Source of the DNA: Candidatus Eiseniibacteriota bacterium
GTDB taxonomy: Bacteria; Eisenbacteria; RBG-16-71-46; CAIMUX01; VGJL01
NCBI GenBank assembly: GCA_963792585.1
Contig: CAWBWI010000005.1
Location: forward strand, 128,001-192,000
DNA: 64,000 nucleotides
Direction of reading: 5' to 3'
Shown: piece after piece, positions 51,136 to 58,319 of the stretch
How the letters are laid out: each line of letters starts with the position of its first letter
Numbering within the stretch: the stretch's first letter is position 1
The notes under the pieces: generated by a model
Database searches by the model: none
What the model saw: only the letters and a program-made list of their open reading frames with translations
Told to the model about the DNA's origin: nothing
Program-made: the position numbers and the translations under genes

Positions 51136-52287
51136 TCAGCCGTGCCGTTCCCGCAGGATGTGGGCTGCCTCGACGATGCGACGCATCTTTCCCGTCGCCG
51201 TGGCTTCGTCGTTCACGCAGCGGTCGGCGAAACACCCGAATCCGCAGTCGGGATTCAGGAAGATCGCCTCGGGGGGGTAGAACGCCAAGGCGCGCTCGAC
51301 CCGCGCGACGATTTCGTCGACGGTCTCGATCTCCGCGGTCCTCGGGTTGACGACCCCGAGACCGATCTCCCGATCGCCGAGGGCCGTGCCCACGACCTCG
51401 ACATCCCCGGCGCGCGGGGTCGCGTACTCGAGGACGAACTGGCGCACGCGCATCCGATCGAAGGCGGGCAGCAGGCGCGTGTAGTCGCCCGACAACAGGA
51501 CATCCTCCCGCCGGCTCCAGTTCCCGCGGCAGACATGGATGCCGATCCGCATCGCGCCGAGCCCCTCGACCACTTTGTTCAGGAGGTCGGCAGCGTAGTC
51601 GAGTTCCGAACCCGCGTCCCGGCGGGTTGCCAGTGTCGCTCACATGAATGTTCGTCGATCGCATTCCTCCGACATGACGATCTCCGTCAGGACCGGCTCG
51701 TCGAACTGGACGAAGTCGCACCCAGCCGCCGCGAGATCGGACAGCTCCTCGCGAAGCAGCCGGACGACATCTTCACCCATCTCGGTCTTGTCGGAGTAGA
51801 CCTTCCCGGAGAAGGCGCCGACCCACATCGCGCGCGTCAGCAGGTACGGACCCGGCAGGGTCACCTTCACGGGCTTGTCCGTCAGTCCGCGGACGAAACG
51901 GAACTCCTCGAGCGCCAGCGGCTCGCGCCGGGAGAGTCGACCGACGCATGTCGGGTTGCTGATCGCGGAAGCGGGCACGTCGAGGGTCGAGAGCATCTCC
52001 TCGAATCCCGACTTGTCCTCGACCGTGTCGAGCATCTCGGCCAGCGTCATCAACCTGGCGCCGTTCAGCTTCTCGGAGACGAATGAATAGAAGTTGTCCC
52101 TGCGGTGCTCGCCGTCGACGACGATGTCGACGCCGGCGTCGAGCTGGATCTGAACGGTTCGCCGGACTTCTTCGTCGGCGATCCGCTCGAAGGCCTCGCT
52201 CGCGATGCGGCCCTTGCGCCGGTCCCTCAGTGCGCGCAGGAGTTCCTGCGAGCGCGGCCAGCTTCCTACCTGGGTCACCGTGAACAT
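51136..52287 (-). CDS. Cobalamin-independent methionine synthase II (MetE C-terminal barrel) family protein with in-frame TGA at 51640-51642 (candidate selenocysteine)
   Basis: ORFs 51640..52305 and 51136..51573 are in the same frame and joined by RTFM*ATLATRRDAGSELDYAADLLNKV. Motifs VGSWPR, DGEHRR, QFDEP, HVCRGN, LEYATPR and NPDCGF are present; the read-through product is ~383 aa. GTG 52305 is an alternative start. Confidence 0.85.
51609..51628 (-). promoter_or_regulatory. Putative bacterial SECIS hairpin
   Basis: mRNA UGA-GCGACACUGGC(11 nt)-AACCCGC-CGGGAC-GCGGGUU: a perfect 7-bp stem with G at loop position 2. Confidence 0.7.
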
Positions 52288-52301: not shown

Positions 52302-53045
52302 TCACACGATCGCCAGCTTGAGGTCGAGGTCGACCGCCCGCCTCAGGGTCGAGGCGATCGGCGAGCGGAGAACGGTGCGCTCCCAGGCCTCCCGCACGCG
52401 GCCTTCATCCTCCATGGTCGAAGCGAAGCACTTCACCTCGATCCTCTGGAATGAGGGGTCGCCCTCCTGCAGGCCCAGGTGCGCCAGGACGTTTCCCAGC
52501 CGCCCCTTGATCGTGATCTCCACGTCATCGATCCCGATGCCGGACCGGGAGCACTCGGTGGCGAAACCGACGGTGAGGTCCCCCGCCAACGCGCCGAGCA
52601 TCACCTCGACCGCCGACGGATGCCGGTCCTTCTCCTCGAAGCTCGCCGGCTGCCCGACGTCGAACGAGAAGTTCCTGCAGTAGACGGTGCTCTTCAACGG
52701 ACCGGTCGCGCGGACGCGCAGGCGCCACTCGTACTCGCGGGCGCGTTCCTTGTCCTTCTCCAGGGCCCTCTGCTCGTCCGCGGTATTCCCCCCGCGCCGA
52801 ACGAAGTAGCGGGCCAGGGGCCCTTCCTTCACCGCGCCGAGGAACTCGTGGCCGACCATCCGGCACCAAGGGGGAAGGTCATCGCCGACGGTCGGCTCAT
52901 GGCTGCGCATCTCGAGGACTCCCCCGTCCGGGACCTTGAGCATGTGCTCCCGAATCAGGAGGATCAGCCCGGAGCCGCAGTCGAGCTCTCCGCCGTCGAA
53001 GACGTGGTCGGGTCGGATCGCAGCCGGATCGATGGGTTCGGTCAT
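52302..53045 (-). CDS. TusA/SirA-like + OsmC-like fusion protein
   Basis: FDGGELDCGSGL...DLPPWCRMVGHEF (TusA-like), then SFDVGQPASF...PSAVEVMLGALAGDL...IDDVEITIKG...RSPIASTL (OsmC-like). Confidence 0.8.
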   Translation of the reverse strand: MTEPIDPAAIRPDHVFDGGELDCGSGLILLIREHMLKVPDGGVLEMRSHEPTVGDDLPPWCRMVGHEFLGAVKEGPLARYFVRRGGNTADEQRALEKDKERAREYEWRLRVRATGPLKSTVYCRNFSFDVGQPASFEEKDRHPSAVEVMLGALAGDLTVGFATECSRSGIGIDDVEITIKGRLGNVLAHLGLQEGDPSFQRIEVKCFASTMEDEGRVREAWERTVLRSPIASTLRRAVDLDLKLAIV

Positions 53046-53048
53046 TTC

Positions 53049-53414
53049 CTAGTACGACACACTCGGCGTGCCGCCGGAGAGGAACTCGACGAGCGCCGCC
53101 CCACCCGCGAGGGTCGCGCCGGGGATCAGCTGATCCTCCGTGATCGCCCGCTTCTTCGTGCAGGGCGTGCAGACGAGGATCTTGCCGCCGCCGGCAATGT
53201 ACTTGTCGACGAGCTCCTTGAGGGGCGCGAATGGCGCGCCGATCGAGATCTTCTCCGCCTCTCCCTTCACCGCGGCCCAGACGCCGTCGGTGCTGAGAAA
53301 GATCATCGTATCCTTCTCGCTACCCAGAGCCGCGTTGGCGACGACGAAACCGACCGTCGCCTTGTCGCCGTCCTCGCGGCAGTGGTTGAGCAAGACACAG
53401 AACTTCTCCGCCAT
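53049..53414 (-). CDS. DsrE/DsrF-family protein
   Basis: ATVGFVVANAA, IFLSTDGV, ILVCTPCTKKR, GATLAGGA. Confidence 0.88.
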   Translation of the reverse strand: MAEKFCVLLNHCREDGDKATVGFVVANAALGSEKDTMIFLSTDGVWAAVKGEAEKISIGAPFAPLKELVDKYIAGGGKILVCTPCTKKRAITEDQLIPGATLAGGAALVEFLSGGTPSVSY

Positions 53415-53415
53415 A

Positions 53416-53664
53416 CTAATCGCTCCTCTCTTTCACCTTCACGAGGTAGTAGGGGTGCTTTGCTTCGATCAGCCGGTGCCCCGTCATGCGGCACCATGCC
53501 GGCATCTCCACAGGCGCCCCCTCGTCGTGCGCTGTCACGAGGACGAACGTTCCGCCCTCCTGTTTCCGAAAATGCATGCGCAGATCGATCAGGATCTCAC
53601 CGCAGCCGGTGCCTTTCCCATCGAACTCCGAGTCATGCTTCCAGCCCGCGGGCGGACCGTCCAT
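53416..53664 (-). CDS. TusA/SirA-family sulfur carrier
   Basis: FDGKGTGCGEILIDLR...AHDEGAPVEMPAWCRMTGHRL; RBS GGAGG before ATG 53664. Confidence 0.82.
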   Translation of the reverse strand: MDGPPAGWKHDSEFDGKGTGCGEILIDLRMHFRKQEGGTFVLVTAHDEGAPVEMPAWCRMTGHRLIEAKHPYYLVKVKERSD

Positions 53665-53742
53665 CGTGCCAGCCTCCCAGCCCGCCTGGGATTCGAGCCC
53701 CCGGCGGACATGGGCTCGATCGTAGCACCTGCCTTCTCCATT

Positions 53743-53774: not shown

Positions 53775-53862
53775 TGCCTCGAGGCTCGCCCGCGTGATAG
53801 AATTGGTCGGATTGTTGTGGTCTGACCTCGTGCGCGGCCGCGCACGGCGCACGGAGGTGTGC

Positions 53863-56001
53863 TTGAGACGAATGCTCCTCGTCTGCCTTCTGCTCCTCCC
53901 CGCGAGGACGAACGCCATCACCCTCCGGGAAGCCTTCGAGCGGGCGGGCCCGGCGGATGGCTACGACAAGTACGTCGTCCTCGAACCGGGAGTGACCTAC
54001 ACGGGCGGACTCCTGATCGGCCCGATCTTCAGCCCGATCGCCTATGGGCTCGAAGGAGAAGAGGGGAAGGACGTACGGATCGTCGGGAACGGAGCAGTCC
54101 TCGATCTGCGGGGTGGACAGATCTGCATCTCCTATTGCATGAACCGCCTCGACATCGACGACTGCGTCGTGCTTCGTGGCAACATCCGTTTCCGTGGGAT
54201 CAATACCGCGGACGATGTCGCGCTCCCGACGGGATCGGTCCGGCACGTCACCTTCTACAAGCCGCACGACTACGGAATCCGACTCCAGGGCTCCGGAGAC
54301 GGGATCACGCTCGAACGCAATCTGGTCGTCGATGCGGTCGACACCGGCTGGGATTACGTCTACATGACCGGAATCTCAAATAGCTGGTTGCCCACGGGGA
54401 CCAACATCTCGTTCAGCGGGCAGTACGGATGGTACGGCACACCCGTGGTGCGCGAGAACTGGTCCTACCAGAGCGACCCGGTTCGCAATGCCGATCCTCT
54501 GACCCACTTCTCGCGGCTCTGCGAATACGGCTGATTCGCGCCGATGCCGTGGCCGGGCGCCACCATGCCTCCGAACAACAACCGTTTCGGGGTGGATCCT
54601 CTCCTGCGGAATCCGGAGGAAGGCGATTACCGGCCGGAGCCCGGATCACCGGCTGAAGGATACGGCTGTCGGACATTCCCACCCGGCGGGCCGCGGGCCG
54701 GCGCGCAAGAGGCACCCCGACCCACAGCCCTTCCCGCCGCGGGGACGCGGGAAACGGTTCAGGTTTCCGGTCCGATCCATGGCGACACCTCATGGGATGC
54801 CGATACGATCGCGGTCGTCGGCGACGTCACGATCGAAGACGGCGTGACCTTGTGGATTCGGCCGGGCGCATGCGTCGCCTTCCAGGGCGCCTACTCCTTG
54901 ACCGTGATGGGTCGGCTCCTTGCGATTGGCACGCCGGAGCAGCGCATTGTCTTTACCGGTGGGGCGGCCATGGCTCGCACGGCGGGATCACGCGAAGGAA
55001 GCTGGACGGGGATCCGCTTCCCGCGCACCGCGGCGACGAATGACTCGACGCGCCTCGAGTACTGCGTCATCGAGTACGCGCGGGCCCCCGCAGGGGGATC
55101 CTTCGGCGGCGCCCTTTTCTTCGACGGTTTCTCGAAGGCCGCCATCGTGAACTCGATCCTGCGCAGCAACGTGGCGCAGTTCGGCGGCGCCGTCTTCTGC
55201 ATCCGCCAGGCATCTCCGCGTTTCGCCGGCACGCTCATCACCGGCAACTCTGCGGAGGTCACCGCCTCGGCCGTCTACAGCATCGACTCCTATCCCACCT
55301 TCGCGAACTGCACGATCGTGAACAACCACGACCGGAACGCCGAGCCGAGCTGGCCGACCGCCGCGTTCGTCAACTTCATCGCGAAGGCGCGCACGACCGG
55401 CTGCGTGGTTTGGGACAACCCCTCCTCCTACTTCCTCCCAACCCAGATGATCGAACCGAAGGCACCCTACACCACCTACGACGACATCCAGGGAGGGATC
55501 CCGGGCGAGGGAAACATCGACCTCGATCCGGCCTTCGCCGGAGATGCGGGACATCCCTATCGCCTGAGGGCCGACTCCCCGTGTCGGGACGCGACGGGAA
55601 ACGCGACCGTTGGCCTGCCGGACCTCGATCTGGCCGGGTCGCTGCGGGTCGTCGGGGCGGCCGCTGACATCGGAGCCTACGAGTGGATCGACCCGAGCAG
55701 CGCGACCGAAACCAGCGCGACGCCCCGCTTCGACTTCTCCCCGTGTCCGAATCCGACGGGCGGCGAGTCGGTCCTGCGTTTCACACTGCCCGCGCCGGCG
55801 CGTGTCGAAATCGGGATCTATGATCTTGAGGGCCGACTCGTGCGCACCCTGCCCGGCGCCGACCTCGCATCGGGATCGCACGTGATGATCTGGGATGGAA
55901 CGGACGCATCGGGTCGATCGGCGGCGGCGGGCGTCTACTATGCCCGGCTTTCGGCGGGGGACGCCGCCTCCGCCGTCGCGAAGATCACGATCGCAAGATA
56001 G
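53863..56001 (+). CDS. Secreted right-handed beta-helix protein with FlgD-like CTD; in-frame TGA at 54532-54534 (candidate selenocysteine, ...LCEYG-U-FAP...)
   Basis: The upstream ORF (RBS GGAGG, TTG 53863, signal peptide) ends CEYG-TGA. ORF 54544..56001 is in the same frame 9 nt later and has no signal peptide or obvious RBS. Alternatively these are two separate genes. Confidence 0.65.
54544..54566 (+). promoter_or_regulatory. Putative bacterial SECIS hairpin
   Basis: After the UGA: AUG-CC-GUGGC-CGGGC-GCCAC-CAU, a 5-bp upper stem plus 3 bp after a bulge. The loop starts 20 nt after the UGA and has G at position 2. Confidence 0.5.
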
Positions 56002-56074: not shown

Positions 56075-58319
56075 TCAGTCTGTGGCGCCGCCCACCACGA
56101 CCTTGCCGGTCGCCGCAAATCCGGGCCCGCGCAAGCGGAGGAAGTAGGTCCCGGGCGCGGGCCGGGAACCATCCTTGCGCCTCCCGTCCCACGCAACGTC
56201 CCACTCCCCGGCATCGAACATGCGATCCGCGAGGATCGCGACCCGGCGCCCCGCCGCATCGAAGAGCTCGAGCCGCGCGGCACCCGCGTTCGGCGTACGG
56301 ATCCGAATTCGGGTCGAGGGACCGACCGGATTCGGCGCGATCGATCCGATCTCGGCGAGGCTCCGCGCCCCGGCGGCCTCCGCCACCCCGCTGACCCCGC
56401 GCTCGATCTCGGCAAGGAACCAGGTCGCGTTCTCGGCGGTGATGTCGACGTGCCCCTGATTGTCGGCCGGGAAGTAGACCGCGTCGAAGGGGGTATGGGT
56501 GAGGACGTCGGGATCGCCGGCGATGTCGTAGAACAGATCGGTCGTATCGAGCGCGAGCGCGCTCACGGTCGGGATGAAGCAGTGGTTGGGATACGGAGCG
56601 ATGATGTCCCCGTAGCCGGGATCACTCGCGCCGAGCTGTGCCATCGTGTCCCGCCATCCTCCCGGCGCATTGTCGTAGGGCCGGGTCCCCGCGATCGTGA
56701 TGGTGACCTCGTCGGCCGGCAGGAAGATGTAGTCGATCATTCCGTGGAAGATGTCGTGGCTCGACATGTTCGGCACGGCCCAGCAGTTCCCCGTGATGTC
56801 GACGAGGAAGCTCGTGTACTCCCAGCGGATGATCTGGGCGCCGGCGGCGAAGCCCTGGCTCCACCTGGATCCGCTCCCGTTCGCGATCGCGACCTTGCGC
56901 GGCGCCGGTCGGCTAGTCCCCCACGGCGGCGATTTCGGACATCAGGGCCGTCCGCAGCGGATCGGCCTGCCCCCCGCCGCCGGGCGGATCGGTGTGGTGG
57001 TAGACGAGCAGCTGCCGCGCGGCCGGCGTGTCGAGCGACGCGAGGTTCGCCGCCGCCTCGGTCGACTGGTCGGAGAAGAACCAGAGCCAGTACTGGATCC
57101 CGAGCGGAATGTCCGCGCCCGAGTTGCGGCGAGTCGAACGAGATGAAGGTGCGCACCGAGTGGGGAAGGCCGTGCGTCTCCATGTAGGCGAGCGCATAGC
57201 GACCGACCAGGCCCCCCATGCTCGCGCCGACCAGCGCCATGGTGTTCGCTGGACCGACGGCCGCGCGAATCTTGCCCGATCAGCTCGACGGCGACGAAGG
57301 CGTTGCGCTGGATGTAGTCGCCGCCGTTCGCGAAGTTAAGGACGACCGCGTCGAAGCCGCGACTCCGAAGCTCCTCTACGAGCTGCTCCCGGTTGAGGAG
57401 CGCGTAGAGTTCGTCCCAGTTCATCGTGTTGTCCGGATCGAATCCCTCGATCAGGAGCGACGGGCTTGGTCAGCGTCGGCATGCTGGCCGGAGAGGTAGA
57501 CGTACGCGTCACCCGCGCCGTAGCCGCCGAGATACGGAATCGTCGCCGTGACATGGAGCGTGTCGTTGGGCGCGGGGGCCAATAGCTCGCGAACCTCGAA
57601 CGGGAAGCCGGCCTCGAGGGTCGCTCCGTCGTCGAAGAGGGAACGCAGCCGGATCTGTTCCAGTCCCGTCTCCGGATACCGCACGTCCATCCCGCTTCCC
57701 ATGGAAACGACGACGAAGCCGCGCCCATCGTCGAAGTCGATCATCGTCGAGAGCCGCGCGGCCGGGTCGTTGCCGAAGGAAGCGTCGGCATCCACGCGAA
57801 ACCGCACCTTGGAGCCGCGGTAGGTGTGGTCCCGCAGGGGCGCCGCGGCGAAGACGCGCCCGGCGACGAAGGGGTTGCCGCTACCCATCTCCAACCGTGA
57901 CCCCCGGACGACGAGGGATCCGTCCTCGAGCGCATCGGGCCGGATCCGGTCGTAGCGGAAGTCCATGACCACGATCGGGATGTTCGCGGGCCCCGACATC
58001 TCCTCGCCGCGCGCGATGATCGAGGGGAGATCCGGCCAGGACGGGGTCGCGATCGACGCCCGTCGGATTCGTCGTAGAGCTGGCGCCACTGTTGAAGGTC
58101 CGTCGGCTTCGAATCCTCCCCGCCGTCGTGTTCCTCGATCCGCGATAGGGGAACCACCCGATCATAGAGGATGCCCGTCGGGACGCTCTCGGCGGGCAGC
58201 GCTCCCAGGATCTCCCCCAACCGCTCTGTTACGTTCCGTGCAGGCGCCGATCTCACGCCCGACGGAGCAAGAACGACCAGACAGGCGACGACCAGTGTGG
58301 CGCGGCCGGCGTGAGACAT
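56075..58319 (-). pseudogene. Secreted alpha/beta hydrolase (PGAP1/DUF676-like, GxSxG) with FlgD-like CTD, broken by about five frameshifts and a TAG (pseudogene or sequence error)
   Basis: Pieces in different frames: signal + VPTGILYDRV; IDFDDGRGF; GGDYIQRNA; LVGASMGGLVGRYAL; ADIPLGIQYW; HCFIPTVSAL; PNPVG...WDGRRKDG. Confidence 0.7.

Follow-up and report, generated by a model that had tools for sequence, protein, structure and literature searches.

A TGA codon at positions 54532-54534 of the 64,000-nucleotide stretch of DNA analysed here (the window) separates two open reading frames that lie in the same frame. The question is whether this codon ends the first of two genes or is read as selenocysteine (Sec) inside a single gene. 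Comparison of the sequence with its homologs indicates that the in-frame UGA of the gene at 53863-56001 is very probably read as Sec.

One reading frame with a single internal TGA

Translation of 53863-56001 (+ strand, like all parts of the gene described here) yielded 223 amino acids, the TGA and then 488 amino acids in the same frame up to the TAG at 55999-56001. The TGA, which follows ...HFSRLCEYG, is the sole internal stop of this 712-codon frame. The re-translation agreed with the original prediction, in which the codon joined a signal-peptide ORF to the next ORF. The beginning of the downstream ORF had been placed incorrectly at NNNRF; the called ORF starts with the ATG at 54544 (MPWPG...). 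In the database annotation the two halves are listed as separate adjacent genes. A Shine-Dalgarno-like GGAGG (53853-53857) is located 5 nt ahead of the TTG start codon, and residues 1-18 (53863-53916) form a likely signal peptide, recognized by eye from its basic start and hydrophobic core; the N-termini of the homologs are similar. With the UGA read as Sec, as frame and conservation suggest, the product would be a 712-residue protein containing a CxxxU motif composed of Cys220 (TGC, 54520-54522) and Sec224.

The same TGA was seen in 77 other distinct junctions and is thus not an assembly error, despite the broken genes found elsewhere in the assembly. Five overlapping ORFs with shifting frames and a FlgD-type tail at the end (56075-58319, - strand) look like a single gene for an exported hydrolase-like protein, interrupted by several frameshifts that are probably assembly errors. 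A translation-GTPase gene, likely EF-Tu (G000 C3:1187450-1188582), was matched in three pieces and a SprA-like gene (G000 C4:17198-21309) in several, suggesting an indel-prone assembly. Twenty sequencing runs were checked, and none held half of the query words. Contigs of relatives spanned the junction in a DNA run (X4, 53807-54745) and in an RNA-library run (X17, 54278-54599); these bridging contigs are evidence of neither transcription nor translation.

Junction codons in homologous genes

Homologous loci were collected from a GTDB scan (11 loci), a metagenome scan (13 loci), the phylum of the host (matches in 16/206 genomes, with only five candidates scored per genome) and the phylum of locus L006, a Cloacimonadota record (matches in 56/232 genomes, 50 of the 57 matches being used). 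By their records, the hosts include Cloacimonadota and Phycisphaerales besides the own phylum. The 89 loci scored gave 80 distinct junctions, the window's own included. The census left out L007, whose contig ends within the motif, and the partial loci L011 and L021. L023 and L024 were rejected as chance matches. L077, missed by the search pattern, also stands outside the census; direct reading showed it to be TGA/TGA.

The two motif positions were Cys/TGA in 66 junctions, TGA/TGA in 12 and Cys/TGC in one (L006), whereas the last junction (L022) was frameshifted, this locus containing many frameshifts. Position 1 is therefore Cys in 68/80 and TGA in 12/80 junctions, the latter (plus L077) representing UxxxU forms, and position 2 is TGA in 78/80. 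Sec is kept in 78 of the 79 intact junctions of this long, two-domain form. TAA, TAG or TGG was found in none of the 80 junctions read on DNA. Upstream genes ending in TAA or TAG, which the original prediction had named as contrary evidence, were thus absent, and a junction-spanning homolog with Cys at the TGA does exist (L006, TGC). Since Cys occurs in just 1/80 long-form junctions, a single sequence provides the Sec/Cys pair of the long form, which is backed by the interchange at position 1 and by the short forms described below. The double-Sec forms and the wider subfamily had no place in the original prediction and were found on comparison of the DNA.

At their far ends these genes use different stop codons (TAG 30, TAA 19, TGA 9; nine genes reach the locus end), the nine TGAs identifying this codon as an ordinary stop in these genomes. 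Downstream of the junction TGA, 74/78 cases show no further stop over at least 380 codons or up to the end of the locus. Within 12 codons past the TGA, an ATG is present in 4/78 and any of ATG, GTG or TTG in 18/78; the window genome has ATGs 4 and 11 codons past the TGA. On a quick tree of 77 rows, with both motif columns neutralized, the UxxxU distribution needs eight changes, at least four of them forced by strong branches. Being quick and unrooted, the tree gives no order of gains and losses.

A protein search with the upstream half returned 394 proteins among 748 candidates. In all 120 matches listed the upstream half is a separate protein; 108 of these end in C-x-x-x (88 in CEYG, the recurrent end that had been anticipated), and the other 12 stop one residue short of this Cys, which suggested a TGA at position 1 too. 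The search for longer homologs gave one match among 1643 candidates (P0121), with Trp at both sites. Trp occurs at the site in five database proteins and their cluster members (P0121, P0128/P0264, P0144, P0155 and P0156). These look, from their sequences, like table-4 gene calls, because P0121 and P0264 read on through W past the Lys that usually forms the C-terminus, and because P0149, which shares 69% identity with P0155, ends exactly ahead of the first W. Full-length homologs with Trp or another non-Cys residue had also been named as contrary evidence; on DNA, TGG is found in none of the 80 junctions.

A hairpin follows the UGA

The sequence GTGGC-CGGGC-GCCAC (54549-54563) can form a 5-bp stem with the loop CGGGC, which starts 19 nt past the UGA and places its G at +21. 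Homolog hairpins and the published model suggest that it is a bacterial SECIS core. The hairpin named in the original prediction is present, but by itself it is not significant in DNA of 65% GC (z -0.60 for 69 nt, +1.32 for 46 nt). As it is unremarkable when folded alone, the case rests on comparison of homologs. The bSECIS model of PMC13188914 has a stem of 4-16 bp and a loop of 3-9 nt, 16-37 nt from the UGA, with a G at one of its first two positions. Our test was laxer than the published one (spacing 14-37 nt; core energy <= -2 versus MFE <= -7.5 kcal/mol, the window core having -6.4). By this test the hairpin passes in 76/79 long-form junctions, compared with 34.8 +/- 3.9 (max 47) in 200 synonymous recodings, a difference inflated by the relatedness of the sequences, which are not independent.

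The hairpin occurs in two registers that differ by one base and encode different peptides, WxxA in 33 loci and VSWA-like in 31, the remaining 15 loci being mostly at +27/28. Its occurrence in two reading registers is a clear sign of RNA-level selection within the coding sequence. Covariation across the homologs was also found: 24 of the 33 first-register loci have A-U, C-G or U-A at the +20/+24 pair, against a mean of 11.9 and a maximum of 21 in 5000 shuffles, and here too kinship inflates the statistic. In the short subfamily the hairpin passes in 28/30 cases versus 8.5 +/- 2.3 in the controls. The genome's own selD has an in-frame TGA followed by a hairpin whose loop G, at +21, is as far from the TGA as it is in the beta-helix gene.

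Selenocysteine machinery of the hosts

Absence of Sec machinery would have spoken against the reading, and the host genome (5.4 Mb in 7 contigs, 84% complete) was found to carry selA, selB and selD, all above their cut-offs, and a tRNA-Sec gene (C1:683832-683927). Among the long-form host genomes 24/25 have selA; the exception, G213, lacks a selA match, yet has selB and tRNA-Sec. With a selA background of 181/206 in the own phylum, this co-occurrence is weak evidence. The genome with the Cys form (L006) also carries Sec machinery. For the short-form CxxU hosts the figures are 26/26 genomes versus 185/251 in the sample of the phylum of G442. Because selA is so common in both groups, the selenoproteomes of the own phylum and of the phylum of G442 are probably under-annotated.

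Predicted structure and export

The full AF2 model, built from an alignment of 30 sequences with Sec modelled as Cys, had pLDDT 87.8 and pTM 0.82; in it, model residues 259-275 form a floppy linker (54691-54741; variable, pLDDT < 50). Domain 1 (53917-54681), a predicted right-handed beta-helix with the Sec loop, reached pLDDT 96.4 and pTM 0.93 when modelled alone. It spans the UGA and is closed by the segment GxDPxLxDP...GDY...SPA, located past the UGA. The assignment of this closing segment to the upstream half, already made in the original prediction, is supported by the model: the UGA falls inside one predicted domain. In the model the motif lies after the last strand of domain 1 and before the closing segment, in a loop absent from domain 2. 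No thioredoxin fold was seen around the motif, as the domain 1 model aligns to beta-helices. Residues His215 (54505-54507; 30/30 and 43/43), Cys220, Sec224 and Cys269 (54667-54669, GYGC) are invariant in the long form (43/43). Other conserved long-form residues are R111, D136, R140, K508 and K533.

The predicted model has the right-handed beta-helix fold of PL6/pectate-lyase-like proteins. The best fold match of the whole protein was 7dmk (Foldseek E 5e-6; VIA Z 21.8, rmsd 7.8, 461 residues aligned); domain 1 aligned to the same structure with VIA-align Z 14.2 and rmsd 3.2 over 190 residues, while Foldseek with domain 1 gave no match at E <= 0.001. Domain 2 (54730-55692), a second predicted beta-helix, aligned to 9cdu (VIA-align Z 20.9, rmsd 3.4, 278 residues). 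NosD matched both domains (Z 17.0 and 11.0). Domain 2 ends in a choice-of-anchor Q segment (55558-55683; NF041518, 29.5 bits versus a cut-off of 25). NCBIfam 20.0 and Pfam have no family model for the Sec domain; generic domain or repeat models were the only ones to pass, and the upstream half matched zero families.

The last part of the protein (55765-55998) is a FlgD-Ig/T9SS-like C-terminal sorting domain. The exported-type CTD proposed for the downstream half was borne out by FlgD_ig PF13860 (about 46 bits, 45.6-46.5, versus a cut-off of 27); with TIGR04183 the tail scored 21.3 bits, under the cut-off of 23, whereas the Cys homolog P0124 scored 38.9. About 200 tblastn matches to the downstream half were found in the host genome, mostly to the tail. 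Of the T9SS machinery, the genome has eight PorV-family matches over the cut-off, and the SprA-like gene is represented by sub-cut-off pieces only. A single exported CxxxU protein of about 712 residues, as originally proposed, remains the best reading, given the lack of TAA and TAG in 80 junctions, the Cys homolog and the full Sec machinery.

A short one-domain subfamily

Among 1.84 billion representatives, a profile search found 141 matches, of which 71 have 165-300 amino acids; 45 of these 71 have a Cys one to three residues ahead of their annotated end. In an HHalign comparison the short subfamily proved homologous to domain 1 (99.95%, E 2.5e-38), with the first Cys in alignment; at the same place it carries CxU, CxxU or CxC. 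On DNA, four short-form genes of the own phylum read DCG-TGA and six have Cys (WCGC in four, HCAC, CTSC), so that Cys CGC is aligned against CG-TGA. In the phylum of G442, C-x-x-TGA was found in 26/28 matches; the Sec short forms amount to 26 CxxU and 4 CxU. The short form keeps the Sec motif without domain 2 and without R140. His215 is not conserved in it, and alignment A4 has a Tyr in this region. Of the functional-looking residues, both subfamilies have only the chalcogen pair in common, with a spacing of 1, 2 or 3. The tails vary between T9SS-type, dockerin-like (by eye) and a short W-G-x-x-K end.

Some distant homologs have a single Cys (L127) or lack the motif (L162, P0205, P0206, P0217, P0220, P0232). 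Three tandem short-form paralogs are located at G058:C77:69887-73423 (L103 and L127); one reads CG-TGA, and the other two have just one Cys. A divergent protein from a Candidatus Delongbacteria record (P0202) contains CCESC, an all-Cys variant with an extra cysteine. In the lipoprotein-like P0139/P0267, two rhodanese domains are fused to the Sec beta-helix domain and the protein ends just before the first motif site.

Neighbouring genes

Neighbourhood clustering, in which many flanks were only 1.5 kb long, revealed neither conserved neighbours nor a reductant. The largest clusters consisted of generic CTD proteins (15 loci) or reflected lineage synteny, and no partner was family-wide.

The window also contains a gene similar to cobalamin-independent methionine synthase (metE-like, PF01717; 51136-52305, - strand) that has an in-frame TGA of its own at 51640-51642 (RRTFM-U-ATL) and a hairpin with a CGGG loop. 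Across 12 loci this codon is TGA in six genomes and TGC or TGT in six. The gene is missing from the 119-family table of PMC13188914, and its sequence suggests that it is likely a second new selenoprotein family. Upstream of it, a tusA-osmC fusion, dsrE and tusA (52302-53700, - strand) may form a sulfur-relay operon. The sulfur-relay genes diverge from the beta-helix gene and are not conserved beside its homologs.

Possible function

Five things are directly established: the frame, the conserved TGA, the exchange of Cys and TGA at the two positions of the motif, the hairpin and the genes of the Sec machinery. From these a course of events can be proposed. By established Sec biology, SelB with Sec-tRNA would bind the hairpin 20 nt downstream and Sec224 would be inserted; failing read-through, a fragment of about 205 residues would be made, without the closing segment and the tail. 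To judge from the sequence, the signal peptide would export the protein and the C-terminal domain would deliver it to the surface. There, Cys220 and Sec224 may cycle between selenolate/thiolate and selenenylsulfide (diselenide in the UxxxU forms), which is the least certain step. The pair would reduce an extracellular disulfide, polysulfide or peroxide, and the beta-helix would serve as scaffold or substrate-binding stalk. We therefore favour, with moderate confidence, the view that the exported Cys-x3-Sec pair works as an extracellular redox couple of thiol and selenol, because the subfamilies have no functional-looking residues in common other than the two chalcogens, whose spacing is free. 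In the selenoprotein catalogue (PMC13188914, Table 1), CxU and CxxU belong to the redox-type motifs.

The main rival keeps the selenoprotein and makes His215, Cys220, Sec224 and possibly Cys269 a soft-metal site for Cu(I), Hg(II) or Zn, engaged in NosD-like capture or delivery at the surface. Sco proteins bind Cu(I) by CxxxC plus His, and all four residues are invariant in 43/43 long forms. The NosD fold matches both domains (Z 17.0 and 11.0), and two short forms score over the Pfam NosD cut-off; NosD itself is described in PMC13685413 as an elongated periplasmic beta-helix which takes Cu from NosL and passes on Cu(I). We consider the metal site rather unlikely, however: the His is missing in the short subfamily, the motif spacing varies from 1 to 3, NosD is one of many beta-helix matches and ranks below lyases, and neither nos genes nor metal transporters occur among conserved neighbours. 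A glycan-binding or polysaccharide-lyase-like surface protein, in which a structural or regulatory Cys-Sec bond gates folding or activity by redox, seems improbable. The two-domain PL6 alginate lyase 7dmk is the best whole-protein match and the long form conserves basic and acidic residues (R111, D136, R140, K508, K533), but identity is 11-17%, a common fold is no proof of function, and the short forms keep the Sec motif without domain 2 and R140. A near-obligate and doubled Sec would, moreover, fit a reactive role better than a static bond.

Still less probable is a role of the Cys/Sec loop as a persulfide carrier of sulfane sulfur or selenium that works with extracellular rhodanese-type partners. 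Such a carrier would suit P0139, with its two rhodanese domains (PF00581, 79.7 bits) fused to the Sec domain, and the divergent tusA, dsrE and tusA-osmC genes of the window; the fusion, however, is one cluster of two proteins, and the sulfur-relay neighbours are unconserved and without evident signal peptides. It is very improbable that the UGA truly ends the first of two coupled genes or that it is read as Trp. Although an ATG lies 4 codons past the TGA in this genome, five representatives have Trp at the site and the upstream half is annotated separately in all 120 matches listed, 0/80 junctions have TAA or TAG, there is no conserved restart, and a single predicted domain extends across the break. 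At each of the two positions Cys is found aligned with TGA, and at neither does the DNA show TGG; TGA is a normal stop in these genomes (nine terminal stops).

Relation to known systems

The selenoprotein reading with an extracellular redox couple can be compared with the catalogued families. The gene shares with the CxU, CxxU and UxxU selenoproteins the in-frame UGA, the Sec/Cys interchange, the paired motif and the hairpin with its loop G 16-37 nt away. It differs from the 119 families of PMC13188914 Table 1 in its beta-helix, T9SS-type tail, CxxxU/UxxxU spacing and almost obligatory Sec in the long form. Neither a beta-helix nor a CxxxU or UxxxU motif is listed in that table, and the terms 'helix', 'T9SS' and 'FlgD' occur in it 0 times. 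A literature search gave no report of a beta-helix selenoprotein family, most subscription journals and the primary Tso/Trs paper lying outside its range, and the parts of deep-Sep and BSepDB that were compared (family table S2 of BSepDB lying outside them) do not contain 'helix'.

The original prediction overstated how unusual an extracytoplasmic, non-thioredoxin selenoprotein is. SaoB, SaoX and SaoC are such proteins according to bioRxiv 10.1101/2022.07.06.499078, and BtuF and an FCYXU TonB receptor are extracytoplasmic entries in PMC13188914 Table 1. Like the beta-helix protein as predicted here, they have Sec outside the cytoplasm in a non-thioredoxin context and are annotated as truncated at the UGA; unlike it, they are transporter-type, with Sao in a conserved neighbourhood, whereas the beta-helix gene is stand-alone with a sorting tail. 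Exported selenoproteins outside the thioredoxin group are therefore a known kind, and what is new is the family and its beta-helix scaffold, together with the CxxxU/UxxxU spacing.

The right-handed beta-helix, two in tandem, is shared with the PL6 alginate lyase BcAlyPL6 (PDB 7dmk) and other pectate-lyase-like proteins, but identity is 11-17% and no Sec motif is known in them. Rhombotarget A (PDB 9cdu) is the closest match to domain 2 (profile E 1.8e-5, structure Z 20.9) and is confined to that domain. NosD (PDB 7o0y) is likewise an exported beta-helix, which handles a soft metal; unlike the present protein it is part of the NosDFY transporter, while here there is no nos context and the long form has no PF05048 hit.

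The retention of Sec in 78/79 junctions and its repeated doubling point to chemistry that is done poorly by cysteine. The natural CxxxC, CxxxU and UxxxU orthologs are a ready series for the Sec-over-Cys question outside the cell. A systematic annotation error is also corrected, 120/120 of the near-length database matches listed ending at one or the other motif position, and a large selenoprotein family is added on a scaffold missing from the 2026 catalogue. We tentatively propose that the proteins may belong to a superfamily of surface-displayed beta-helix selenoenzymes, present in at least four uncultured phyla and hidden by stop-codon mis-annotation, that use a mono- or di-Sec loop for extracellular redox or metal chemistry. 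If this is true, Sec chemistry would be seen on a pectate-lyase fold for the first time, and a type IX-like secretion route would gain its first selenoprotein cargo.
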